DNA of 64,000 nt, from NCBI GenBank assembly GCA_963841685.1, contig CAWJDU010000003.1:1549936-1613935 (forward strand), written 5' to 3'. Made by a program: the position numbers and the translations under genes. The stretch is from Vulcanimicrobiota bacterium (GTDB lineage: Bacteria > Vulcanimicrobiota > Vulcanimicrobiia > Vulcanimicrobiales > Vulcanimicrobiaceae). The notes under the pieces were generated by a model that searched no databases, was not told the origin of the DNA, and was given only the letters and a program-made list of their open reading frames with translations. Position 1 is the first letter of the stretch. Every line of letters begins with the position of its first letter. Shown in pieces: positions 29,906-45,577 of this stretch.

Positions 29906-30610
29906 ATGCGCAAGCACGGCAAGCGCTTCCGCGCGCTCGAGACCGCGTTCGACGGCAGCCGCCTCTACGATCCGACCGAGGCGGCGCAGATCGTCAAGCG
30001 CAACGCGAACGCGAAGTTCAACGAGACGATCGAGATCCACATCAAGCTCGGCGTCGATCCGAAGAAGTCGGATCAGAACGTCCGCGGCACGGTCAGCCTT
30101 CCGCACGGCACGGGCCGCACCGTGCGCGTCATCGCGTTCGCGAAGGGCGACGCGGCGCGCGCGGCCGAGGCGGCGGGCGCCGACGTCGTCGGCGAGCAGG
30201 ACCTCATCGACCGCGTCAAGGGCGGCTTCGCCGACTTCGACGTCGCGGTCGCGACGCCGGACATGATGCCGTCGATCGGCCAAGAGCTCGGCCGCATCCT
30301 CGCGCAGAAGATGCCGAACCCGAAGGCGGGCACCGTGTCGCCGAACATCGCCCAAGCCGTTCGCGACATCAAGGCCGGTAAGGTCGAGTACCGCCTCGAC
30401 AAGACGGGCATCGTGCACACGATCGTCGGCAAGGCGAACTTCGAGGACAACCAGCTGACCGACAACGTCGCGGCGCTGCTCGACGCGATCGTGCGCGCGA
30501 AGCCGTCGGCGGCGAAGGGCACGTACCTGCGCTCGATCACGCTCGCATCGACGATGGGGCCCGGCGTGAAGGTCGATCCGGCGCGCGTTCGCGCCGCCGC
30601 GACGGCGTAG
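29906..30610 (+). CDS. rplA: 50S ribosomal protein L1
   Basis: [33 protein letters not shown]. Confidence 0.98.
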
Positions 30611-30625
30611 AGCGCTCCGCGCGAA

Positions 30626-30671
30626 GACAAACAAAAGGCGCTCGGCCTGGGCCGGGCGCCTTTCGTTTGTC
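30626..30671. terminator. Bidirectional intrinsic terminator
   Basis: AAAGGCGCTCGGCC/GGCCGGGCGCCTTT stem with A and T tracts, between convergent genes. Confidence 0.8.
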
Positions 30672-30685
30672 GCGCGAACTCTCGC

Positions 30686-32120
30686 TCAGCCGCCCGCTGC
30701 AGCGAGGATGCGTTCGCGGTCCATCGTGTCGCCGATCGGCGCACGATAGTGGATCGGCGTGACCGGGGCCAGCGGTGCGGGGACGCGCTTCGGCGCGCGG
30801 TCGCGCGGCTTGCGGACGAACAGCGGCAGGACGATCGACACGACGAGCATCATCGCGACGGGGAACAGCGTTCCGCTGTACGAGCCCGTGACGTCTTTCG
30901 CGCGCGCCGCGATCAGCGGGCCGACGACGCCGGCGCAGCCCCACGCGGTGATCAGCATGCCGTAGTTGAGGCCCATGTACTTCGTGCCGAAGTAGTCGGC
31001 GTTGAACGCCGGCATCGTGCCGAAGCTGCCGCCGTTGCACAGAAGCACGAGTCCGAACGCGATCGCGACGGCGACCGTCGAGTGCATCGACGGCATCAGC
31101 GCGAACACGACGGCTTGAATCTCGAGGATCAGCATGTACGTCCGGTTGCGGCCGATCTTGTCCGAGAGCGTGCCCCAGAAGATGCGGCCGAAGCCGTTGA
31201 AGATCGCCAGCACGCCGACGATCGGCGCGGCGATCGCGGCGCTCGAGCCGGTGAGATCGCTGAAGATCGGCACCGCGTTGCTGACGATCAGAATGCCGGC
31301 GGTGACGCTCGTGAACAGCATCAGCCACAGCACGTAGAACTGCGGCGTCCGCAGCGTCTCCGACGGGCGGTAGTTCCGCGTCTCGTTCGGCGACGGGGTC
31401 CTCGGCGCGGCGGCCGTAGTGCTTCGGCGGATCGCGAAGGATCAGCGCGCACGCGCCGCCGACGACGAGATAGATCGAGGCCGGACCACACGAACACGCT
31501 CATCACCGCGGCGACGTCGGCGCGCGCCATCGGCGTGCCGTGCGCGAGGTAGAGCGTGGCGTCGGCGGCGGCCCGCGCGAAGCCCGCGAAGTGCGGCACG
31601 ATGCCGTTGTAGAAGAACGCGCCCAGGCCGAAGCCGGTCAGCACGAGGCCGCCGGCGAGCCCGCGATGCCGCGGAAACCACTTCGTCACCATCGCGACCG
31701 GCGAGACGTAGCCCATCCCGAGCCCGAAGCCGCCGATGACGCCGTAGCTGACGTACAGCCACCACACGCCGAAGCGCGCGGTGAAGAGTCCGGCGAGCAC
31801 GTTGCCGAGCGCCCAGAGAACGATGCCGGTGATCGCGACGTTGCGCGGGCCGACGCGGTCCTGCCAGCGGCCGCCGACGACGGCGCCGATGCCGAGCGTG
31901 AAGATCGCGACCGCGAACGTCCACATCGTCGTCGTCACGGACCAATGAAACGCAGCGACCAGCGGGCGTGCGACGAGGCTCCATGAGTACACGGTGCCGA
32001 GGCACATCATCATGATCGTGCCTGCTGCCGCGACCGCCCATCGCCCGTACAGCGCGCGTCCGAGACGCGTTCGGGGAAACCGCCGCTCCGTAACGATGCG
32101 GCTCGATCTTCCTTGACCAT
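30686..32120 (-). CDS. OFA-family (oxalate/formate antiporter-like) MFS transporter (frameshifted)
   Basis: [47 protein letters not shown]. Confidence 0.88.
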
Positions 32121-32323
32121 TGCTTCCTTTACGAATCCCTGTCGTCGCACCCCGCTGCGGTCGGCTAACTGCCAAGAACAGCAGCCGATGGGTTTTCAAT
32201 CGGCTGCATCCGGCATCCAAACGAGCGCCGGATCACACGTAGGAGGCTGTTTTACGCAAGTTTTTCCGTATGCGCGCGATGCGTAAAGATGCGCAAACAA
32301 AACGTCGGCGCGAAAGCGGCGGC

Positions 32324-33727
32324 ATGGCGATTCTCGAGTCGCACGCGGCGGCGACGCGCGAGGTCACGTCGCGGCTCGCGGCGCGCGCGTGCGCGACGTC
32401 GTTCGCCGAGCTCGGCGACGGCGACGATCGAGCACGCGAAGCAAGCCGTGCTCGACCTCGCGGGCAGCGCGATCCGCGCGCGCTCGAAAGCGCCCACGTC
32501 GGCGGCGGTGCATGCGGCGCTCGAAGCGCTCGGCAGCGAGCGGCAGCCGCACCGCGGTCGGTTACGGCGCGACGTTCTCGCCGCGCGACGCCGCGCTGCT
32601 GAACGCGTGCAACTTTCACGTGCTCGACTTCGACGACACGCACGAGCGCTCGTCGCTGCATCCGGGCGCGCCGGTCGTCGCCGCGGCGCTCGCCGCCGCG
32701 GAGCGCACGCGCGCGAGCGGCGCGCGGCTGATCGCGGCGATCGTCGCGGCTACGACGTCGCGGTACGCGTCGGGCTCGCGCTCGACCCGGCGCGCACTAC
32801 GCGCGCGGATTCCATCCGACCGCGACCGCGGGGCGGTTCGGCGCGACGGCCGCGGTCGCGCGCGTGCACGGCGACGACGCCGCGACACTCGCGTCCGCGT
32901 TCGGCATCGCGCTGAGCCAGGCGGCGGGTCGCTGCAGTTCAGCGTCGACGGCGCGCGACGAAGCCCGTGCAAGTCGGGTTCGCCGCGCACGACGCCGTGC
33001 TCGCGCGCGAGCTCGCCGCGTGCGGCGTGCGCGGTCCGGACGAAGCGTTCGAAGGCCGCAGCGGCCTGCTGCACGCGTACTCCGACGGCGCGGACGCGGC
33101 CGAGCTGCTCGACCGCTGGGACGGCGTCCACGAGATCGATCGCACCGCGTTCAAGCCGTATCCGTGCTGCCGCTACATGCACGCCGCGATCGACACGCTG
33201 CGCGCGATCGTGCGCGAGCACGGGCTCGATGCGCACGCGGTCGAACGCGTGCGCGTCGCGCTGCCGGCGGCCGGGATGCGCCTGTGCGCGTATCCCGAGG
33301 AACGGAAGCGCCGGCCGCGCACGATGGTCGACGCGCAGTTCAGCATGTACTACGCCGCGGCGGCGACGCTGCTGTGGGGCGGCGTGCGGTGGGACGACTT
33401 CGCGCGCCGCGACGCGCCGGAGATCGCGCGCTCATCGAGCGCATCACGGTCGACGAAGATCGCGGCCGTCGAGGCGCTCGTGCCGCGCATGGCGGCGCGG
33501 GTCGAGGTGCGACGCGGGCGCCGTGCACGAGCAGCCGTCTCGCGAGCCCGCGCGGCGAGCCGGACAGCCCGCTGAGCTGGGACGAGCTCGTCGCGAAGTT
33601 CGACGAGCTCGCCGGCGCCGCGTACGGCGCGCCGCGCCGAGCGCGCATCGTCGAGGGCGTGCGCGCGCTCGACCGGCTCGACGACGTGCGCGATCTCACC
33701 GCCGAGCTCGGCGCACCGGACCGATGA
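32324..33727 (+). CDS. MmgE/PrpD family protein (frameshifted)
   Basis: HVLDFDDTH, LHPGAPVV, FEGRSG, FKPYPCCRYMH, AQFS, PRGEP. Confidence 0.88.
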
Positions 33728-35204
33728 GCGCGACGCTGATCTTCGAAGACGTCGTCCGCGACGCGGCGACGCTGCGCGAGCGCGGCATGCGGCTCGCGGG
33801 CGGACTGCGGCGCATCGGCGTGCGCGAAGGCGACGTCATCGCCGTGCTGCTGCGCAACGGGCCGGTGTTCGCCGACGTGATGTTCGCGTGCCGCACCGCC
33901 GGCGTGTACTTCGCGCCGCTCAACTGGCACTTCACGGCCGAGGAGATCGCGTACATCGTGCGCGACTGCGGCGCGCGCGTGGCGGTCGGCGACGCGGACC
34001 TGCTCGACGCGGCGGCGTCCGCGTTTCCCGCCGGCGCGGCGATCTTCGCGAACGGCGGGACCGGACGGTTCACGGCGTACGAGCCGTGGCTCGCGCAGCA
34101 GGCGCCGTACGATGGTCCGGCCGTCTCGCCGCGCGGACACTTCCAGTACACGTCCGGCACGACGGGCCGGCCGAAGGGCGTGCGCCGCGATGCCGTGCCG
34201 CTCGAGCAGGTCGAGGCGCGGCGGCCGCGATGCGCGCGTCGTGCGGACCGCGTACGGAATCGAGGACGGATCGCGTACGCTGGTCTCCGCGCCGCTGTAC
34301 CACAGCGCGCCCTCGTCGATCGCGCAGAACACGCTGCTGTACGGGAACCTGCTCGTGCTCGCGCGGCGGTTCGACGCGGCAGAGACGCTCGCGCTGATCG
34401 ACCGCCATCGCATCGAGGTAGCGTACCTCACGCCGACGATGTACGTGCGGCTCCTGCGCCTGCCCGACGCGGCGTGGTCGCGGTACGACGGGTCGTCGCT
34501 GCGCTTCGTCGCGTCGACGGGCGCGCCGTGCGCACCGGAGGTGAAGCGCGCGATCATCGAGCGGCTCGGGCCGGTCGTGAACGAGACGTACGCGTCGACG
34601 GAAGCGGGCACGATCACGATCGCGTCGAGCGCCGACGCGCTCGCGAAGCCGGGAACGGCGGGCGTGCCGATCCGCGACGCGCGGTGCGCATCCTCGACGG
34701 CGCGGCGCGACGTGCGCGCCCGGCGTGATCGGGACGATCTACGCGCGTCAGCCCGCGTACGCGGACTTCACGTACCAGAATCTGCCGGACGCGCGCCGCG
34801 CGATGGAACGCGACGGGCTGCTCACGCTCGGCGACGTCGGCTATCTCGACGATGACGGCTATCTGTTCGTGTGCGACCGCTCCGCCGACATGGTGCTCAG
34901 CGGCGGCGTCAACATCTATCCGGCGGAGATCGAGCACGCGCTGCTGCGCGTCCCCGGCGTGCTCGACTGCGCGGTCGTCGGCATCCCCGACGCGGAATAC
35001 GGCGAACGGCTCCACGCGTTCGTGCAGCCCGAGCCGGGCGCGGCGCTCGATTGCGAGACGTGCGCCCGCGCTGCGCCGCACGTCGCGGGCTTCAAGGTGC
35101 CGCGCACGTTCACGTTCACCGACGCGCTACCGCGCGACGACAACGGCAAAGTCGCGCGCCGGCGCTTGCGCGCCGCCGCGACCGAGAGCGCCTCGCCGGC
35201 ATAA
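33724..35204 (+). CDS. Acyl-CoA synthetase (AMP-binding; frameshifted)
   Basis: YTSGTTGRPKG, PLYHSAP, YASTE, GDVGYLD, SGGVNIYPAEIE, LPRDDNGK. Confidence 0.92.
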
Positions 35205-35235
35205 GCCGACGCGTCGCCGGCGGCGGCGCCCGCCG

Positions 35236-35967
35236 TCAGCACCCGCTCGAACCCGGCGGCGAGCGCAGCGCTCCCGGCGTTCCCCTCAGGACCTTGGTCG
35301 TCGCGCGCGTAATCCGCGCACGCGCGCGTCCGCGATGCGCGCGCGCAGGAGCGCCCGATGGACTCCGCGCTGCCGAAGTCCGGCAAAACGCCGCCGCAGT
35401 ACAGGAGCGCGAACTCGCCCGAAACTCCGAGCGCGCCGCCGCCGGCGGCCACGCCGTCGGTCTCGGCGACGAACAGGCCGCCGCCGCGGCCGCGCACAGC
35501 TCCTCAAACGAACGGCCCGATCCGGCTCGCCGCCCTCCGCGAACGCGTGCACAGAGCCGGACCCATGATGCACGATCGCGCTCGAGGCGGACCGCGATGC
35601 CCGCCCCCGGTGAGGTCGCCGTGCGGCGCGCGAGTCGTTTCGTAGAACGCGAACGCTCGTCTTCGAGCGCGAACCCGTGCCGGTCGAGCAGCGCGCGATC
35701 GCGCTCGATCGCCGTTTCGCGCATCTCGACGCGGACCGGCACGCCTCGCGAGCGATAGAATGCGTCGAGGACGGCGACGTCATCGTCCGTGAGCGGACGG
35801 GACGATCCGACGGCAAACGCGACCGGGCGCGTCGTCGCCCTGGCGCAGACCGCGTAGCCGCCCGCGACGGCGACGGCTCCGTCGTGCGCGGTCGCGACGT
35901 CGACGTTACGGTTACGCAGATATGTCGCCCAGAACGCGGCTTCCGCGCGGTCGGCACCCGTCGGCAT
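35236..35967 (-). CDS. GNAT-family acetyltransferase (frameshifted)
   Basis: Motif A assembled across frames: GVLPDF-RQRGVHRALL. Confidence 0.65.
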   Translation of the reverse strand: MPTGADRAEAAFWATYLRNRNVDVATAHDGAVAVAGGYAVCARATTRPVAFAVGSSRPLTDDDVAVLDAFYRSRGVPVRVEMRETAIERDRALLDRHGFALEDERSRSTKRLARRTATSPGAGIAVRLERDRASWVRLCARVRGGRRAGSGRSFEELCAAAAAACSSPRPTAWPPAAARSEFRASSRSCTAAAFCRTSAARSPSGAPARAHRGRARARITRATTKVLRGTPGALRSPPGSSGC

Positions 35968-36153
35968 CCCGGTCGCTCGTGCGCTGGCGGCGCGCGGCCC
36001 TCCTCTTCGCCGTAATGTGTTCGTAAGCGGGGGCGCGTAAGATCGGGCCTACGGGACTAGTTTGAGCCGTGAGGCTCGAGGGGGGTCCAAGTTCGCTGCG
36101 TCGATCGGCGCCGCAGCCGGCTCGACGGCGAATCGCTTTCGCCGCCGATCGGT

Positions 36154-38531
36154 GTGGTTCGCGTCGCGCTCCTGGGGACGCCGCAGTTCCGCTTCGAGGG
36201 CCGGGAGCTGCGCTTGGCGATCCCGCGAACGCGCTCCGCGTGATGGCGTACCTCCTATTGAACGAAGGATTGCACGCCCGCGAGCGGGTCGCGACGGCGC
36301 TGTGGCCCGACGACGACGAGAGCGGGGGCCGTGCGAACCTCCGCCGGCATCTGCACCTGGTGCAGCGCGCGCTGCCGCCGGCGCCGCGGCCGTGGCTCGA
36401 ATGCGATGCCGTGACCGTCGGGTGGAATCCCGGCGCGCCGGTCACGCTGGATGTCACGGCCTTCGAGCGCGGCTGCACGTCGCCCGCGCAGATCGAGTCG
36501 GCGATCGCGCTCTACCGCGCCGACCTGCTGGCGGACTGGGACGACGAATGGCTGGTGCCGTGCGCGATCCCATGCGCGCCGCGTACGAACGCGCCTCGAG
36601 ACGCTCGTGCAGCGCGCTCGCGACGCGGGCGACGCAGATCGCACGGTCGCGGCACTCGAGCGCGTTCGCGTTGCCGATCCATGGCGCGAGGACGCGTTGC
36701 GCGCGCTCGTTACGCTGCGCGCGGAGCGCGGTGATCGCGCGGGCGCACTCGCGGAGTACGCGGTGTTCGCCGAGCGGCTGCGCGACGAGCTCGGCGTCGA
36801 GCCGATGGCGGAGACGCGGGCGCTCAACGATGCCGTGCGCGATCGCGAAACGGTTTCCGCCGCGGCGTTCGCTGGCGCCGCCGAACGCGCGCGCGTGCCG
36901 GACGAGATGCCGTTCGTCGGCCGTTCCGCGGAGCGGTCCCTGCTGCGCACCGCGTGGCGCGCCGCCGCGAGCGGTGAGGGGACGACCGTGCTGCTCGCGG
37001 GGGAAGCGGGCGCCGGGAAGACGCGGATGCTCGACGAGCTGGCGCGCGACGTCGCCGCGCACGGCGGCCACGTGCTGCGCGGCCGGTGCGGCTCGCCGGA
37101 GTCCGAGCCGCTCGAAGCGTTCACGGACGCGCTGCGGCCGCGTTGCCGCTCGCGCGCGGCATCGCGCTGAGCCCGGCGTGGCTCGGCGTGTTGAGCGCCG
37201 TCATGCCGCAGCTGCGCGCCGAGATCGCCTCGCTGCCGGATGCGCCGGCGCTGTCGCCCCCGCAGCAGCGCACGCGGCTGTACGAAGCGGTCTGGTCGTT
37301 CATCGCCGCGCTGGCGCGCTCGCGCCCGCTGCTGCTCGCGCTCGACGACGTGCATTCGGCGGGCGCGTCGACCGTCGCACTGCTGGAGTTCGTCGCGCGC
37401 CGCGCGCGCCGCGCGCGCGTGCTGGTCGCCGTCGCGTGGCGCGAGCGCGAGTACGCGAGCAACTACGCGCTCGCGGACCTGCGCCGCCGCCTCGACCGCG
37501 AAGGCCTCGCGTCCGTCGTGCCGTTCGGTGCGCTGGATGCCGCCGACGTGTGCGAGCTGCTGCGGCGGCTCGTCGACGAGGACGACAATCGCGCGACGCC
37601 GTCGCGCGCGAGCTCACCACCGTGCAACGGTAACGCGCTGCTGGTCGGTGAGACGCTGCGCGCGTGGGCGGATGCAGGAGTGCTCGACGCATCGGCGCGG
37701 CGTTGGCGCGATACGGCAACGATCCCGCAGCTCGCCGCATCGGCCGGACACGCGTCGATAGTGCGCGAGCGGCTCGAGCGCCTCACGGACGATGCGCGCA
37801 CCGTCGCCGAGATCGCGGCGATCGCCGGCGACACATTCCCGGCGGAGCTCGTGCGCGAGGCGAGCGGTATCGGAGAGCGGCGCACGCTCGACGCGCTCGA
37901 CTTGCTGATCGACGAGCACATCGTGCGCGACGGCGTGCGCGGGCAGTACGCGTTCAACCACGACGTCGTGCGCGCCGCGATCGTCGACGAGATGACGGAG
38001 CCGACGCGGCGCCGCCGCCAACGCCGCATCGCGCAGGTGCTCGAACGCCTGTATCCCGAGCGGGCCGCCGATCTGGCGCAGACACTCGCCGGCCACTGCG
38101 ATCTGGGCGACGGGCCCGGGCGCTGCATCGGTCCACTACGCGCGCGCGGCGGCGCACGCCGCGGCGGTATTCGCGAACCAGGAGGCGCTGACGTACGCAA
38201 CGCGCGCGCTGGACCTCGGCGACGATCCGACGCTCCGCATCGCGATGCTCCGGCTCTGCGAGGAGCTGTACGGCCGCCGCGGCGAGCGCGACGCCCAACG
38301 CTCGACGGCGATCCGGCTGGCGTCGGTCGCGCGGCGTCTGGACGATGCGGAGATGCTGATCGACGCGCTGCGCCGGCGCATCGAGATCGAGCGCGTCTGC
38401 GGCGACCCCGATGCGGAATGCGACGCGGCATGCGAGCTGGACGCGGCGTATCGCGCCGCGCGACGTCCGAAAAGCGTCCGAGCCGGCCCGGCGGCATCGG
38501 ACGCGGCCGCGGCGCCGGACCGTTAGAGTAA
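36154..38531 (+). CDS. SARP/BTAD + AAA (STAND-like) + TPR transcriptional regulator (frameshifted)
   Basis: VRVALLG, ALWPD, ALYRADLL, DPWREDA, ELGVEP; Walker A GEAGAGKT; Walker B LLALDDVH; YAFNHDVVR. Confidence 0.85.
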
Positions 38532-38545
38532 CGGCGGAGGTTTCT

Positions 38546-39070
38546 ATGGATTTCGTCGATTATGCTCATACCGCGAAGGCCGCAATCGACCGGTTTCGCG
38601 ATCTGATGACCCGGTACGCCGCCGCGGCCGCGGTGCCGGCGTGCGCGCTGGCCGCCATCGTGGAGCGCGAAAGCGGTGGAAATCCAAGCGCGATCAGCGC
38701 CGACGGCGGCTACGGGTTGTGCCAGATCACTTCCGGCGTCGACGCGCACGGCGTGTTCACGCAGACCGGCGCGAACATGCGGGACCCGGCCAGCAACCTC
38801 GAGACCGCCGCGCGCTTCTCCCTCGCGCCGGCGATCGCGCAATGCACGGCGCTGCGCTCGCGCTACGCCACGCAGATGAACGCCGTTTCGCCCGAGATCC
38901 TGTTCTTCGCGTTCTGCGCGTACAACGCGGGGTTCGGCAGCGTTCAAGCCGCCGTGCAAAGCGGCGTGAACCCCGACGACCGCACCACCAACCGCTACGG
39001 CGCCGGCACGTTGGCCCTCTATCACAGCGCCCTCGCCGCTTCGCACGCAGCGCTCACCGCCACGCACTAG
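38546..39070 (+). CDS. Lytic transglycosylase (SLT domain), no signal peptide seen
   Basis: GGAGG RBS; AIVERESGGNP, GLCQI, AYNAG. Confidence 0.88.
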   Translation: MDFVDYAHTAKAAIDRFRDLMTRYAAAAAVPACALAAIVERESGGNPSAISADGGYGLCQITSGVDAHGVFTQTGANMRDPASNLETAARFSLAPAIAQCTALRSRYATQMNAVSPEILFFAFCAYNAGFGSVQAAVQSGVNPDDRTTNRYGAGTLALYHSALAASHAALTATH

Positions 39071-39101
39071 CGGCATTCACCCTCATCGTAAGGAGCCAGC
39101 C

Positions 39102-40728
39102 ATGGCCGTTACCCTCAACGACCTCGGAAAGACGCTGCTCGCGCAGCTGTACGAAAACGTCACCGGGGGCGACGGCTCCGTCCCGCCGGCCGAGGACGCG
39201 TTCATCTCCTGGGCGCAGCCCGGTATCCCGTTCGGACTCAATGACTTTCAGTTCGCCGTGCAAGGCCTGAGCGCCAACATCCCGCAGACCGGAGGGAGCA
39301 CGTCATCCGCGAGCACGCCGGCCGCCGCCGGGTCGCCGAGCGGGTCGTCGTCCGGCTCGAACGGGTCGAGCGCGTCGAGCGGCTCGGCGACGTCGACGTC
39401 GAGCGGCGGCGGGACCGCGACCGCCGCGCCGCCCGCCGTCGATCCCGCCGACGAGCTGCGGCTCATGCTGCAGCAGGCATTCAACTTCGCCGATCGTCGA
39501 CTACGTCCCCGACGTGACCGGCGTCTACAATCATGACAAGCAGCAGACGATCCTGCGCTCCTCGCAGATCCGCATGAGCCAGATCTTCGGCGACATAGTG
39601 AAGTTTTCGGAAGTCGTCAACTACCCGCTCACCGATCAGCAGAACGCGGAGCTCGCGAAGTGCCGTTCGCTGCTGACGACGACGCAGACGACGACGGATC
39701 CGCTGACGGGTGCGCAGTCGACGGCGACCAGCGACAGCCCGATGGTGCAGGCATACAACGAGAAGATGGCCGCGTACATCGCCGCCGCGCTGCAGTACAA
39801 CACGAAGCGCGCGAAGGCGCAGTCGGCGTCGGGTGCGGACGGTGCCGAAGCCGTCGCGGACTGGGCGAACAACGCAACGCTCTACCGGCTCCAGGTCAAG
39901 GCCGCGATGGACGAGTGGACCGGCGAGGGCTACAAGAACGACGTCGACGAGATCAACGCCTACATCGCCCAGACCACGCAGCGCAGCATGCTGCTCTGGA
40001 AGCAAGGCGTCCAAGAGAACTACGAGGACGGCATCGTCTCCGGCGTCGCGCCGGGCCAATCGTTCTACTACACGACCGTCATCCCGGGCAAATTCGCGAA
40101 CGCCGGCGGGTGGACGAACTACACGCTGACGCACGACGAGGTTTCCGAAGCGTCGGCGAGCTCCAGCAGCTCCGCGAGCGGATCGACCGGCGTGAATTTC
40201 GGGCTTTTCAGCGTCGGCGGAAGCGCCTCGCACAGCCAGTCGGCGGCCGATGGGTCGATGGCCGTCAACGACTTCTCGATGTCGTTCGACATGTGCCAAG
40301 TCGTCATCGCGCGCCCGTGGTTCGCGCCCGAGTGGTTTCAGAACCGGGGCTGGATGCTACAGAAGGGCGTCGGCTGGACGTACGACGCGATGCCGTCCGA
40401 CGGCAGCCCGCTGCCCAAGACGCAGGGCAACTTCATCGCGTACTCGACGACGCTGCTCTTCATCAAGAACCTCACCATCACGAGCCAGTCGTTCGCGGAC
40501 ACGTGGCAGACGGCGCAGAGCTCGACCAGCGGCAGCGCAAGCGTCAGCTTCGGCCCGTTCTCGCTCGGCGGCAGCTACTCGCACGCCAGCGGCGACCAGT
40601 CGTTCGCGGCGCATCGCGACGGAGCGACGCTCACGGTCGACGGCATGCAGCTCATCGGCACCGTGAACCACCTGATCGGGAAGGCGCCGAATCCGCTCCC
40701 CGAAATCTCCGCGTCCGACTTCGAGTAG
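39102..40728 (+). CDS. Hypothetical protein, RPWF-motif paralog A, candidate beta pore-former (one frameshift near 39490)
   Basis: AAGGAG RBS; Ser-rich linker; helical middle region; two Ser/Gly amphipathic segments; IARPWF..WF..RGW; ends KAPNP. Confidence 0.75.
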
Positions 40729-42196
40729 ATGACATCGGCCGTCGCCCTGGCCCTCATGGCGAAAGCGGCCGCGGTGTTCGGGGGGAGCGACACCTTCTGT
40801 CGTTCCCCTCACGCCGCTGAGCTTCACGAAGGACCAGCTCGATTTTCTGAACGCGGGCACGAACCCGTCCGCGGCGCTCGAGAACGCGTGGCAGCTCGCG
40901 CGCATCGTGAACCAGATGCCGAGCGGACCCGTGTGGCCGACGGTCGACACGGGTCCGCTCTGGCAAGAATACACGCGCATCCTCCAGCAGGCGCAGCTCG
41001 CGAACGAGCAGCGCACGCCGGATGAAGAGACGCAGGACCAAGCGGCGCTGGCATATCTGTACGTCATGACCGGCGGCGTGCAGGCGCCGTCGGCCGCCGT
41101 CGTCGCATACGATCAATACCGTGACGCGTACCTGAACGCGAAGCAGCAGTACACTGCCCGTTCGATCGCCGCCCAGAGCAGCAGCGATCCGGCCGTGAAG
41201 AGCCAGTTCGCGACCGATCAGCCGTCGCTGCAGGCGGCGGTCGACGCCGCGCTCACAGCGTGGGAGACGGCGGGCTGCAAGGCGCCGGTCGAAGAAGCGC
41301 GGCGCACCGAGCAGAGTCTCGGCGCGTTGTCGCCCGCGACGACGTGGTCGCAGTGGACGCAGAATTGCGATCCCGACGTCGTCGCGCAAACCGACCTCGA
41401 AGGCGGGCAGTTCATGCCGACCGCGTTCGCGCCGTCGTCGGTGATCGACGGCGGCCTGTGGCAGCAATTCACGCTGGGCGGCACCGAGGTCGCGCAGCTC
41501 GTGCAAGGTGCGCCCGCGCAGCTCGCGGCCCGCTTGGGCGCCGGCGATTCGGTCGACGTCGCATCGGTCGATTTCAGTGCACGTCGGTGACGGTCCAGCG
41601 CCCCTGGTTCAGGCCCGACGTGTTCGGGTCGAGGTTCTGGAAGCTGAACATCCCCCCGACGGTCATCGGCGACGGCGCGAGCCCGCCGAACGGGACGATT
41701 CCGGGCTATACGGTCGCGATCGTGTTCGCGCGCAACGTCTCGGTGACGCTGGCGGCGACGTCGCCGGACCCGCAGTCGCAGACGCCGCTGATGATCGGTC
41801 CGCTGCACGTCTCGACGATCGTCGACGGCGCCGGGAACCGCACGTTCGTGCGGCCCGAAGCGACCGCCATGATGCGACCGCTGCTGTTCGCGACTGCGGC
41901 GCCGGCGCCGGCGCCGCGCCCGGTGTTCGCACGGTCGCCGTTCCTCATGCGCGAAGCGATCGCGCGTCCCGTGGCGACGGCTCCCCCGCCCGCTGCGCCG
42001 GTGCAGCCGGCGCAGCGGTTGATCGCGCTGCGCGCCCTGAACTTCCAACGGCTGCCCGCCGCGCCGGCGACGGTAACGCCGCCGGCAAGTACGCCGCCCG
42101 CCGCCGCGGCGCCGCCGGACGTGATCTTCGTCCTCGGCTTCATCTGCAAGTACGTGCCGCAGTGCCCCAACCCGGATCCCGTCGCTGACGTGGTGA
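40729..42196 (+). CDS. Hypothetical protein, RPWF-motif paralog B (frameshifted)
   Basis: VQRPWFRPDVFGSRFW, DG..P..G.I..Y, FARNV, VLGFICKYVPQCPNPDP; Pro/Ala-rich insertion. Confidence 0.72.
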
Positions 42197-42223
42197 CGCG
42201 CCCGCTGCGCGAGGAGAACCAGC

Positions 42224-43150
42224 ATGGACTCATCGGATAACGGCGCGTCGCCCGGCGATTCGTCGGATTCGTCGAACACCGCTGACCCCGGTTCATCCGA
42301 CTTCGACCGACTCGACCGCGTCGGATTCATCCGGTTCGAGCGATGCGGGTTCGTCGGATTCGAGCGACTCCGATTCGACGGACTCGAGCGATGCGGGTTC
42401 GTCGGATTCGAGCGACGCGGGTTCGTCGGACTCGAGCGATGCGGGTTCGTCGGATTCGAGCGACGCGGGTTCGTCGGACTCGAGCGATGCGGGTTCGTCG
42501 GATTCGAGCGACGCCGGCACGTCGAGCAGCTCGAGCGCGAGCGCGGCGGTACCCGTTGCGCCGGCCGCATCCTCGTCCAGCACGTCGTCGTCATCGAGCG
42601 CGAGCTCCACGACGAACTACGCGGCCCTGGTTGCGATTCCGTCCGGCATCAACGCGGGGCTCGGCGCCGCCGGTCAGAGCACCATGCTGGCGGTGCTCGG
42701 CACACCCGGTGCGCTGACGCAGAACTGCTCGCCGATCACCAACGCCCACTTGAAGACGTTGCTGGTGACGCAGAACGTCGGCCCGTTCAGCGTGACGGGA
42801 CTGAAGCCGGCGGTCGAGGCCCTGACACGGGTGTTCGCGGCCATCAAGGCGCAGAAGCCGGCGCTGTACGCGGTACTGACGACCCCGGGAATGACGTGCT
42901 GCCGTCTCGTGCGCGGTTCGACGACGAACTTCTCGAACCACGCGTGGGGCACGGCGATCGACATGGGCATCCACGGCGTCGTCGTCCAGCTCGGCTCGAC
43001 GACCGCGCAGGAAGGCATCGTCGAAGCGGCGCCCTTCTTCCAGGCCGAACGCTTCTTCTGGGGCGCCGGATACAGCACGCGCAAGGATCCGATGCACTTC
43101 GAGGCGTCAACGAGCTGATCCAAGCCTGGAAGGCGTCCGGAACGATATGA
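42224..43150 (+). CDS. M15-family Zn metallopeptidase with N-terminal Ser/Asp repeat (frameshifted)
   Basis: GAGGAG RBS; R...SNHAWGTAID; FFWG; DPMHFE. Confidence 0.82.
   Translation: MDSSDNGASPGDSSDSSNTADPGSSDFDRLDRVGFIRFERCGFVGFERLRFDGLERCGFVGFERRGFVGLERCGFVGFERRGFVGLERCGFVGFERRRHVEQLERERGGTRCAGRILVQHVVVIERELHDELRGPGCDSVRHQRGARRRRSEHHAGGARHTRCADAELLADHQRPLEDVAGDAERRPVQRDGTEAGGRGPDTGVRGHQGAEAGAVRGTDDPGNDVLPSRARFDDELLEPRVGHGDRHGHPRRRRPARLDDRAGRHRRSGALLPGRTLLLGRRIQHAQGSDALRGVNELIQAWKASGTI
42336..42520 (+). repeat. 24-nt tandem repeat (7 full units plus a partial) encoding SSDAGSSD
   Basis: Units of TCGAGCGA(T/C)GCGGGTTCGTCGGA(T/C) with no spacers; one diverged unit. Confidence 0.9.
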
Positions 43151-44363
43151 ACGGGTCGTCCGACTCCGACGACAGCGACTCGACCGTCGCCACCCCGAGC
43201 GACTCGAGCGATTCGGACTCGAGCGACTCCGGCGATTCGAGCGACTCCAGCGATTCGAGTTCGAGCGATTCCGGTGGTTCGGACTCAACCAGACCGAGCG
43301 ACGCAGGCTCCAGCGGCGCGGAGGGCTCGGACTCCAGCGACTCGGTTTCCAGCGATTCGAGCAGCTCCGATTCGAGCACGTCGAGCGCGTCCGCGTCCGG
43401 TGCGTCGAGCACGACGGCTTCGTCGGCGTGGCCTGATGCTTCCGCCGGCGGATGGAACGCGTCGATCCGCACGGTGAGCGGCTGGAGCCGCGTTCCGGTC
43501 GCGGGCTTGATTTCGTGAACTTCGACGATCAGCTCCGCGCCCGCCGCCGAAGGTTGGGCGGTGGCCGGCGGGGATCGGTGGGTCCAGCGGATGGGCGCGA
43601 GCGCGGTCATGGACGATCTGCTGCACTTCCACGGAACGGCATCGGTCAGCGGCAGCGCACAGACCGGAGCGCGACGGCGCCGGGAGCGGTCGGCGGCGCC
43701 AGGTCAACCAGATAACCGATCAGCTGGCCGCGTAAGGGCGGCGGATGTGATCGCGCTGCTGCCGCAAGGGACGCTGATGTCGGGGTTCGCGCCGTCGGCG
43801 TCCGCGCCGTTCGACATCCCGGCGTTCATCTCGGAGGCGCTCGATGCGCTGGTTTCCGCCGGCGTGCTCGCCGAGAAACCACCGGTGTCGGGAGTCATCC
43901 TGTCCGGCCACAGCGGCGGCGGCGGCGCCCTCTCGGTGCTGCTCGCGCAAGCGGGAAATCCGCACGTGCCCGCCGTCGTCGAAGCGGAGTTTCTGTTCGA
44001 AGGAATCAACGGCCCGAACGAGCTCGCGACGCAGACGGCGTTCGTCACCGCCAAGCTGAACGCCGATCTCGCCGCGGTGACCGGCGCGACGGATGCGTCC
44101 GCGGCCCTCGCGTACCTCGCGCGCAGCTTCCGGTTCGCAGGGTTCTACGACTCGCAGTTCTACGTGCCGTTCTACACGCAGCTGAAGACGTCGATCGCCG
44201 CATGGTTCGCGAAGAACGCCGGCGCGTTCGGCGGCACCAGCGACCCGACCTACGTCACCCGCTGCGTGCGAACTACGCGATCTCGGTACCGTCACAGGCG
44301 GTCCCGCACGACGAGATGGTCGACCACGGCAACCTGCTCGCGGCGCTCAAGATGCTGCCGTGA
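43147..44363 (+). CDS. Ser/Asp-rich N-terminus fused to an alpha/beta-hydrolase-like domain (frameshifted)
   Basis: ATGA overlap with the upstream gene; SDSSDS tract; LHFHG, LLPQG, ILSGHSGGG nucleophile elbow. Confidence 0.68.
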
Positions 44364-45321
44364 CGGCGCCCTTCGCGGCGGCCTGCTGCGCCGTGGAGAG
44401 CTCGCGCGCCACGCCGCCGTCGAGGTAGCGTTCGACGGCGGCGACGACGTCTTCGACGCGGATCATGTCCATGCACCGCGGCAGTGCGCCGACCGGATCG
44501 ACGCACCGGTGGCGCGGATCGTCTTTGTCCGAACCGTCGCCGAAAGTGCGGGCGAACCCTGCGCCTTCCAGCACCCCCGTTGTCGCAGCACGGCAGCGCC
44601 CCGACGGTGTGGATGAACTGGTGGTGCGGGTACGCCCCCCAGTCGGGCGGCTCGCGCCCCCCGGCCACGACCACGCACGGGCGGTTCCGGGCCGCCCCGC
44701 GGACGGGACCGCGGCGCCGGGGTGCATGGCAATGACACCCTGACACAGAACGCCCTCCGCGTGGTGGACGAGTCGGACGAGCTGCCGGCGTCGGTTTTCC
44801 CGCGAGGTCGATCACGCCGCGAGGGGGGTAGTGGTGCGGTCGCCGACCTCCACGAACAGACGGCCCCGGAAGTGGTCCACGACGGCCTGGTAGCGCTCGA
44901 ACTGCCCACCACTTGGGCGTGTGGTCCTTGTTCCCGCCGGCGTGACGATCCAGAAGGCCGGCGGTGCCCCGTCCGTCGTGGACCTGGGACCTCCACCCGC
45001 GCTCGGGGTCCGTGAGGTGGATGTCGCCCCGGTCCTCGGTCGGCCCGACCGGCACCCCCAGCCGTCCGCCAGGAACGCCGCGTACCGAGGAGGAAGTGGT
45101 ACGGCGCTGTCTTGCAGTGGTGGATCAGCGGGTAGTGCACTCGACGCGCTCCGCCTCCGGGTGTGCGTCGATCGGGGTGACGTAGGGATGATCTCCCATA
45201 GCGCGGGGCGGGCGTGCGGACGTCGTCGGGAACCGCCCCGGGCGGCGCGTGCATCCCGCACGAAGGCCGTCAGGGTCACGATGTCCCCGGCGACTGAGTT
45301 GTGCAGGATCAGCTTTCGCAT
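44347..45321 (-). CDS. GT9-like (heptosyltransferase-like) glycosyltransferase with Cys-rich C-terminus; very error-rich sequence
   Basis: MRKLIL..GDIVTLTA, KWW, VIDLAGKT, CVVVAGGREP, CCDNGGCW...C...RCMDMI, assembled across frames. Confidence 0.65.
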
Positions 45322-45577
45322 TATTCCTTCTCGACGCCGCAACTCGTGGTTTTTGTTGGTCCCTGCTTGGAACGACTGCGGGTTTTGAAGGTTCGAACGG
45401 ACTGCGCCGGTTCTTTGGTTGGGTAATGTGTGCTCTGATGAAACGCACGCCTGCCTGAGGATCCTTCGAGAGTCAGGACAGGTCTCGCATTAGATTGAAT
45501 GCTCGTCGTGCCCGTCACGGAAGCAGTGTGTGTCGCCTTGTCGGCGGAGGCGCTTCCGTCTCCCTCCGGAGAGCATT

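Follow-up and report, generated by a model that had tools for sequence, protein, structure and literature searches.

Several described systems open membranes with proteins that resemble, in part, the ones analyzed here. The CDCL toxins of Bacteroidota, in the available text of PMC11169675 and PMC11952106, are encoded as adjacent paralogs, combine a two-hairpin subunit with a partner, and in some lineages involve proteases or have them close by; MACPF/CDC and gasdermin pores, too, are constructed from two matched hairpins per protomer (available text of PMC11952106). Bacterial gasdermins are signal-less and lie next to protease genes in some loci, and the fungal RCD-1-1/RCD-1-2 system requires two paralogs. 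Wall hydrolases that carry no signal peptide, as in holin-endolysin cassettes and type 10 secretion, require a membrane lesion to reach their substrate. Finally, the pyroptolysins are environmental bacterial and archaeal beta-pore candidates placed between gasdermin and CDC (available text of bioRxiv 10.64898/2026.10.05.756811). Here, we compare with these systems a seven-gene block in 64,000 nucleotides of DNA from a Vulcanimicrobiota bacterium (GenBank assembly GCA_963841685.1, contig CAWJDU010000003.1, positions 1,549,936 to 1,613,935 of the forward strand; hereafter the window), which an earlier reading of the sequence (the original prediction) had proposed to be an undescribed envelope-attack system. 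We found that two adjacent paralogous genes of this block, A and B, belong to a large, undescribed family without annotation in which the pair is almost obligate and asymmetric, and we place them with the giant beta-pore proteins, the pore itself being predicted.

A and B are clearly paralogs (24% over 252 columns, E 2e-14; hhalign probability 100), and neither has a family in Pfam, NCBIfam, PADLOC or PHROGs; no description of the family was found in the open-access literature, supplements aside. A profile search with A returned 2,471 clusters at 50% identity, and a pattern scan of species genomes identified 60 A/B loci. Carriers include Actinomycetota, Bacteroidota, Pseudomonadota, Cyanobacteriota, Bacillota, Acidobacteriota and methanogenic archaea, with the culturable Streptomyces, Pedobacter, Roseateles and Gracilibacillus among them. 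A and B occurred together at 60 of 61 loci (60 genomic, plus one from a metagenome scan that held A and B only), the exception being a 477-bp contig. Note that the loci were retrieved through A, and the presence of B is therefore independent evidence. Each formed one clade (SH-aLRT 98) in a quick tree built from 49 chosen rows; the two paralogs are ancient, have evolved separately and have been kept together. Paralogs are extra or reordered at L023, L042, L074 and L078, with up to four at L042, and in an archaeon B is divergent from A. Near the host, A was present in 0 of 43 congeners and in 1 of 400 sampled phylum genomes (G043, an unpublished genome that is also among the rows of the STAND-paralog count below, was scored as a miss in this search and in the hydrolase search). 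A phage collection gave no match to A and a plasmid search gave 2 weak matches. The closest homologues of A, B and the neighboring hydrolase all lie on JGI contigs of 13,945 bp, presumably one and the same contig.

The two subunits share a core and differ in what is inserted into it. In the AlphaFold2 model of A (pLDDT 79; secondary structure by DSSP), an N-terminal helix and strand are followed by a long helical hairpin (~183-298) and then by four long strands (343-348, 397-408, 451-465 and 514-529). Between the strands of the first pair, and again between those of the last, lies an insert of exactly 48 residues (349-396 and 466-513), with the motif FGLF (371-374) or GFGPF (487-491), respectively, at its midpoint. 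These inserts consist of 45-50% S/T/G/N, versus 23% elsewhere; they align nearly gapless across 98 members at a mean identity of 24%, and the motif-to-motif spans are held at 68 aa in 93/115 and 82 aa in 92/115. B has the same core (AlphaFold2, pLDDT 64.6) without either hairpin-like insert: its first insert is helical and 26 aa long (motif-to-motif span 47-50 aa in 53/58, typically 49 aa), and its second is a Pro/Ala-rich, disordered and highly variable stretch of 75-200 aa. Both chains end straight after the last core strand. In the model, the inserts of A are of the kind expected for beta-barrel hairpins, and Porin_4 matched weakly on the second insert in 9 of the 98 members. The sheet topology of A, as proposed from strand order, would be compatible in order with the central twisted four-stranded sheet and two refolding transmembrane-hairpin regions of MACPF/CDC; the fold searches were dominated by the coiled coil. 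The original prediction was borne out as regards an undescribed paralog pair, and its term 'pore-former-like' fits this hairpin-like anatomy as a prediction made without a fold or profile match.

Set against the CDCL pairs, A and B have no match to PF01289, either directly or among the families listed for the 98 members, no signal peptide that we could see, no domain 4, and no YGR motif in the consensus of A1, A6, A7 and A8; they have in turn a long coiled-coil hairpin, a B subunit without either hairpin, and wall-hydrolase neighbors. With bacterial gasdermins they share the lack of signals, the two hairpins per protomer (predicted for A) and adjacent protease genes at some loci, and with RCD-1 the involvement of two paralogs; however, the gasdermin match is non-significant (E 0.21), A and B are about twice as long with longer inserts, the pair is asymmetric, and the island encodes no protease. 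Pyroptolysins, as far as the available preprint text describes them, are single gasdermin-plus-Ig-domain chimeras, whereas A and B are paired and end after the last core strand. Unlike holin-endolysin and type 10 secretion loci, the island has neither a small transmembrane holin nor phage genes, and a soluble pair would replace the holin.

The block spans 9.6 kb. Its features are as follows, in window coordinates, with protein lengths from an intact copy on contig C2 of the same assembly:

35964..45532, no strand: lineage-specific insert between a GNAT-like gene and the rplJ leader, from congener comparison

36088..38526, plus strand: BTAD-AAA_16 (STAND) regulator, 814 aa in C2; Pfam match; start set by tblastn of the C2 copy

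38547..39070, plus strand: soluble lytic transglycosylase (SLT), 173-174 aa; PF01464, E 1.2e-12

39102..40728, plus strand: paralog A, 546 aa in C2, with a break in the window copy near 39,490; without family match

40729..42196, plus strand: paralog B, 493 aa in C2, with breaks in the window copy near 40,800, 41,575 and 42,180

42224..43150, plus strand: M15 peptidase with a serine/aspartate-rich (SD) tail, 334 aa in C2; PF13539 (Peptidase_M15_4), E 1.4e-10

43147..44363, plus strand: SD-tailed alpha/beta hydrolase (GHSGG), 400 aa in C2; without Pfam match

44347..45321, minus strand: GT9-like glycosyltransferase, 334 aa in C2; PF01075, E 3.3e-8; convergent

The order, strands and tight spacing given in the original prediction were confirmed, as were the ribosome-binding-site motifs (GGAG/GAGG ahead of STAND, SLT, A and M15) and the starts of B and the hydrolase at, or overlapping, the preceding gene's stop. 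A Pfam scan of the seven proteins bore out the calls of BTAD+AAA_16, SLT, Peptidase_M15_4 and GT9, with no family for the hydrolase, A or B. Because the window is indel-ridden, the genes appear fragmented in it, with frameshifts in six of seven (SLT is intact). Contig C2 (L011) carries a copy of window positions 29,313-54,666 at 86% nucleotide identity in which all seven open reading frames (ORFs) are open; the genes are real, and the breaks in the window are therefore most likely sequencing errors. We rejected true pseudogenization as the main reading of these frameshifts given the intact C2 copy, on which all protein analyses were based. In this assembly (G000), contigs C2, C5, C7, C8 and C9 are largely 82-98% duplicates of C1, C3 or C4, and these small duplicate contigs, C2 included, point to a second strain in the bin.

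The block had been described as inserted between rplA and rplJ; the insertion was upheld and its site refined. rplA lies at 29,996-30,562, ~5.5 kb upstream of the block, and is followed by major-facilitator-superfamily, MmgE/PrpD-like, acyl-CoA-ligase-like and GNAT-like genes (named from translations, without a family scan). In five of five congeners the rplA-rplJ interval holds none of the seven genes and the GNAT-like gene adjoins rplJ; the insertion point is therefore GNAT-rplJ, with an insert of about 35,960-45,530, which differs little from the range in the original prediction. The interval varies from 1.4 to 11 kb across these congeners and measures ~15 kb here (window 30,560-45,530), making it an insertion hotspot in the genus. 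A promoter scan gave a single site, upstream of rplJ, and rplJ retains a TTGACA-17-TAGACT promoter in the C2 copy. A DNA search of 40 relatives returned low-complexity matches only. By a hydropathy screen and reading of N-termini, rather than a signal-peptide predictor, neither the seven proteins nor 117 full-length A/B homologues had a 19-residue stretch above a Kyte-Doolittle value of 1.9, and all seven proteins appear cytoplasmic; the claim that no signal peptides or secretion genes are visible holds within the block, with genes of the eCIS (extracellular contractile injection system) type present elsewhere, on contig C4. PADLOC on the seven proteins reached E 0.024 at best, over short stretches, with none for A or B. 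We rejected a prophage remnant or lysis cassette, there being no phage match for A and no holin-length hydrophobic ORF among the seven. The match to a described system, named in the original prediction as what would overturn it, did not emerge: the locus holds no prophage cassette, no PADLOC system and no eCIS genes.

We found that what recurs beside A and B is a class of enzyme rather than this set of genes. None of the 60 genomic loci had a tblastn match to STAND, SLT, M15, hydrolase or GT9, and the seven-gene system is therefore not conserved. Neighbors were scanned two genes per side at 32 loci (117 ORFs), with 62 additional ORFs taken mainly from 80 immediate co-directional candidates and 16 ORFs compared with PHROGs. 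Wall-hydrolase or wall-binding neighbors were counted at 24/60 loci, in 7/27 lineages (hand count; lineages by record titles; without a background control); the chance rate of such neighbors is, by estimate, a few percent. A hemopexin-GH73 gene lies directly upstream of the pair in 15 Streptomyces loci; other neighbors are GH25 in Frankiaceae, GH19+PG_binding in Methylocella, lysozyme2+PG_binding in Phytoactinopolyspora, PG_binding in two Nocardioides, M23+PG_binding on the opposite strand in one Streptomyces, and endolysin-family (PHROG) ORFs in Hymenobacter and two Gracilibacillus. Four actinobacterial loci have lysozyme-like neighbors (motif E..Y.D...T.G) that align to a Pfam-confirmed lysozyme at only E 0.021, and were therefore left uncounted unless another enzyme qualified the locus. 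Proteases flank 9/60 loci (C70 in 6, S8 in 2 and CHAT in 1), the C70 peptidases lying directly upstream of the pair in 6 Bacteroidota loci. The association thus extends to non-homologous wall enzymes in other phyla, and this part of the envelope-attack proposal stands. As a separate observation, the Frankiaceae GH25 (L036:12882-13844) has an acidic low-complexity N-tail (35% D+E in 80 aa) that resembles the SD tails; 3 other tested neighbors have no such tail.

In the host family, the SD-tailed enzymes travel separately from the pair. SLT has the catalytic-Glu context ERESGG, and M15 has the motifs SNHSWGTAID and DPMHFE; the SD-rich N-tails of M15 and the hydrolase, which the original prediction had pointed out, proved to be the sole such ORFs in a genome scan, and the hydrolase itself has weak esterase matches only (E 0.19 or worse). 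Of 347 other genomes in the family, 9 gave strong hydrolase matches (one weak partial match was dropped), and beside these we found SD-M15 in 8/9, GT9 in 7/9 (co-directional), SLT in 3/9 and an A/B-like pair in 1/9; two of the nine contigs are short (4.6 and 10 kb). A separate, family-restricted module is thus made up of SD-M15, SD-hydrolase and GT9, to which SLT may or may not be added, and the block is two modules rather than one conserved system. In G283 an SLT 64% identical to ours lies directly upstream of SD-M15, and in the window A and B therefore sit within an SLT-M15-hydrolase-GT9 run. A 4-kb block from SLT to the hydrolase is common to G320 and G251 (82% identity) and is followed in G320 by a far-diverged A/B-like pair and in G251 by an unrelated set of 600-790 aa ORFs, of a kind also found in G283 and G228.

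Runs of at least three such unannotated 600-790 aa ORFs, mostly mutual paralogs, occur beside this SD-enzyme module at L088:1-6447, L086:13061-19901 and L084:143-6670, with hairpin-like segments (by eye) and C-terminal beta repeats; they have no Pfam match and no profile support for these segments, and we regard them as candidates for a second pore family of the multi-component kind. G320 and G251 have, between SLT and SD-M15, a membrane-protein-like ORF (L081:5814-6791, L084:7512-8528) that could be a holin analogue; its homologues in G000 lie elsewhere (C1:725-726 kb and C3:1,134 kb), with none in the island. GT9 has six invariant Cys in the alignment and is inverted here, while it is co-directional in relatives. 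By analogy with TibC, which heptosylates serines and has a four-Cys iron finger (available text of PMC4358343), GT9 may, speculatively, glycosylate the Ser-rich SD tails: like TibC/AAH it is a GT-B heptosyltransferase-like enzyme with a Cys cluster, encoded beside Ser-rich proteins. However, GT9 has no sequence match to TibC, a different Cys spacing and no N-terminal beta-barrel, and SD-tail glycosylation is therefore a lead only.

The BTAD-STAND gene had been cast as the switch of the module, a role that we rejected. At 814 aa, versus open frames of 1,161-1,204 aa in the 5 paralogs compared, it is without ~380 C-terminal residues; it stops at this point in both strains, and the lost tail is not encoded in the island. 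Moreover, STAND paralogs are common (37/43) in congeners that lack A. Although physically within the insert, the gene lies at the edge of the island and is probably a passenger there or a remnant; the truncated protein is probably not the island's switch, and is unlikely to be a working sensor.

We reasoned that A and B could form a two-subunit beta-barrel pore that gives signal-less wall hydrolases access to peptidoglycan, so that the producer would be lysed from within. We favor this explanation tentatively; that A and B form a pore at all, whether for inward lysis or for outward attack, we regard as fairly probable. The two hairpin-like inserts of A would refold and insert into the membrane, and B, to which A would bind, would be the non-inserting partner. 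A with B would open the inner membrane and, in a holin-like role with a gasdermin-like direction, pass folded enzymes, whereupon SLT would cut the glycan and M15 the stems, and the cell would lyse, its envelope being breached in a single concerted step. Proteolysis or another cue may trigger the pore: proteases flank some homologues, and none is encoded in the island. An inner-membrane pore with passage of SLT and M15 is the simplest self-contained scheme. In its favor are the near-constant pairing of A with B, the length-constrained inserts in A only, and the recurrence of unrelated wall hydrolases beside the pair; weak pointers in the same direction are Thiol_cytolysin and MACPF as the nearest named ESM clusters, a bacterial gasdermin at Foldseek rank 1, and Porin_4 on the second insert.

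Several results weigh against this explanation. Foldseek (PDB for A and B, BFVD for A) gave no match at E <= 0.001, the PDB matches having E >= 0.2 and TM 0.12-0.22; rank 1 in PDB was the bacterial gasdermin 7n51 (E 0.21), with 8et2 (E 0.66) and 7n50 (E 0.92) also returned, so that the structural check suggested in the original prediction lent no significant match. Three VIA-align runs returned coiled coils only, and the beta domain was therefore barely tested, the models being full-length chains. No MACPF, Thiol_cytolysin or gasdermin Pfam was among the 25 families listed for the 98 members; PDB sequence searches (queries A1, A6, A5, GT9 and A9) had no match at E < 0.1; and hhalign against 7 MACPF and 2 CDC-family sequences gave E 0.03-0.7, a comparison of little power, as a MACPF-versus-CDC control was likewise non-significant. 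The nearest named ESM clusters (Thiol_cytolysin 0.85, MACPF 0.84-0.85) are all below 0.9, a low recognition, and only one of four hairpin arms passed an alternation test (p 0.14, 0.19, 0.029 and 0.42). As to the wall enzymes, 20 of 27 lineages have no enzyme supported by a hidden Markov model next to the pair, a single Streptomyces cassette accounts for 15 of the 24 positive loci, with counts lacking a background control, 8 of 9 genomes have the SD-enzyme module but no A/B, and two archaeal carriers have no peptidoglycan. Finally, the direction of action is fixed by no result here.

An outward weapon is a nearly as good, if rather unlikely, account, in which the same pore and hydrolases would be released by lysis or non-classical export and B would anchor A on a rival membrane, in the manner of CDCL pairs or of complement plus lysozyme. 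The anatomy serves both explanations equally, and a non-inserting plus inserting pair fits the CDCL scheme (available text of PMC11169675 and PMC11952106). The variable Pro-rich insert of B and the hemopexin or PG-binding neighbors could aim the pair, and the sporadic spread near the host (0/43 congeners, 1/400 phylum genomes sampled) would suit a weapon. However, the CDCL pairs analyzed in PMC11169675 were, according to its available text, chosen on the basis of SpII signal peptides and are accompanied by an immunity lipoprotein, while we saw no signal peptide here. A weapon would need an export route and probably immunity, and neither was seen: no conserved small neighbor, the candidate for an immunity gene, was found at the A/B loci, and the island holds no holin-like gene.

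It is also possible, and in our view unlikely, that A and B are not pore formers but make up some other structure, such as a filament or scaffold based on their long coiled coil, and that the island is a chance assembly, at an insertion hotspot, of the A/B pair, the SD-enzyme module and a broken regulator. The lack of a significant fold or profile match for A and B, the mostly separate occurrence of the two modules elsewhere, the variable rplA-rplJ interval (1.4-11 kb in five congeners), the inverted GT9 and the truncated STAND all favor such an assembly. On the contrary, inserts of fixed length with central aromatic tips in A only, the repeated recruitment of unrelated wall hydrolases, and the second, independent A/B-like pair beside the same module in G320 would not be expected from it.

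Last, the island could be orphan cargo of an eCIS encoded elsewhere in the assembly, its SD tails replacing the eCIS_core (DUF4157) loading domain of polymorphic cargo. In 5 homologues the same hydrolase domain is joined to eCIS_core (VanY fusions occur in other bacteria as well), and contig C4 of G000 (43,000-71,300, outside the window) holds an eCIS-type cluster with a tail sheath, a T4-gp19-like tube and eCIS_core. Baseplate- and spike-like ORFs were also noted there by eye, and C4 may belong to the other strain. In G368 (L089:4088-9312) an eCIS_core-hydrolase fusion, a BTAD gene, a sheath-like ORF and GT9 stand together. We consider this origin very unlikely, as G178 (94% complete) and G283 (85%) carry the SD module but gave no match for sheath, tube or eCIS_core, only a tube match was obtained in G251 and G320, the scanned neighbors of A/B loci include no eCIS gene, C4 may be another strain's, and the island has no sheath, tube or baseplate gene and no eCIS_core on its proteins, its hydrolase bearing an SD tail instead.

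Returning to the inward-lysis pore and its outward variant, a broader and still more tentative proposal is that A and B are founders of a large family of two-subunit giant beta-barrel pores, soluble 'beta-holins' working with interchangeable signal-less wall hydrolases for programmed lysis or for killing neighbors, and that in the host family a single SD-tailed enzyme module has come to lie next to two or more multi-paralog cassettes that are unrelated to each other. Should the pore idea prove wrong, an unannotated family of 2,471 clusters with a near-obligate asymmetric pair is a well-defined target, and it occurs in culturable hosts (Streptomyces, Pedobacter, Roseateles and Gracilibacillus), which makes it directly testable. 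If true, these proteins would constitute a new branch, missed by current profile and fold searches, of the giant beta-pore proteins (MACPF/CDC/gasdermin), and would provide a phage-independent route for cytoplasmic wall hydrolases to reach peptidoglycan.

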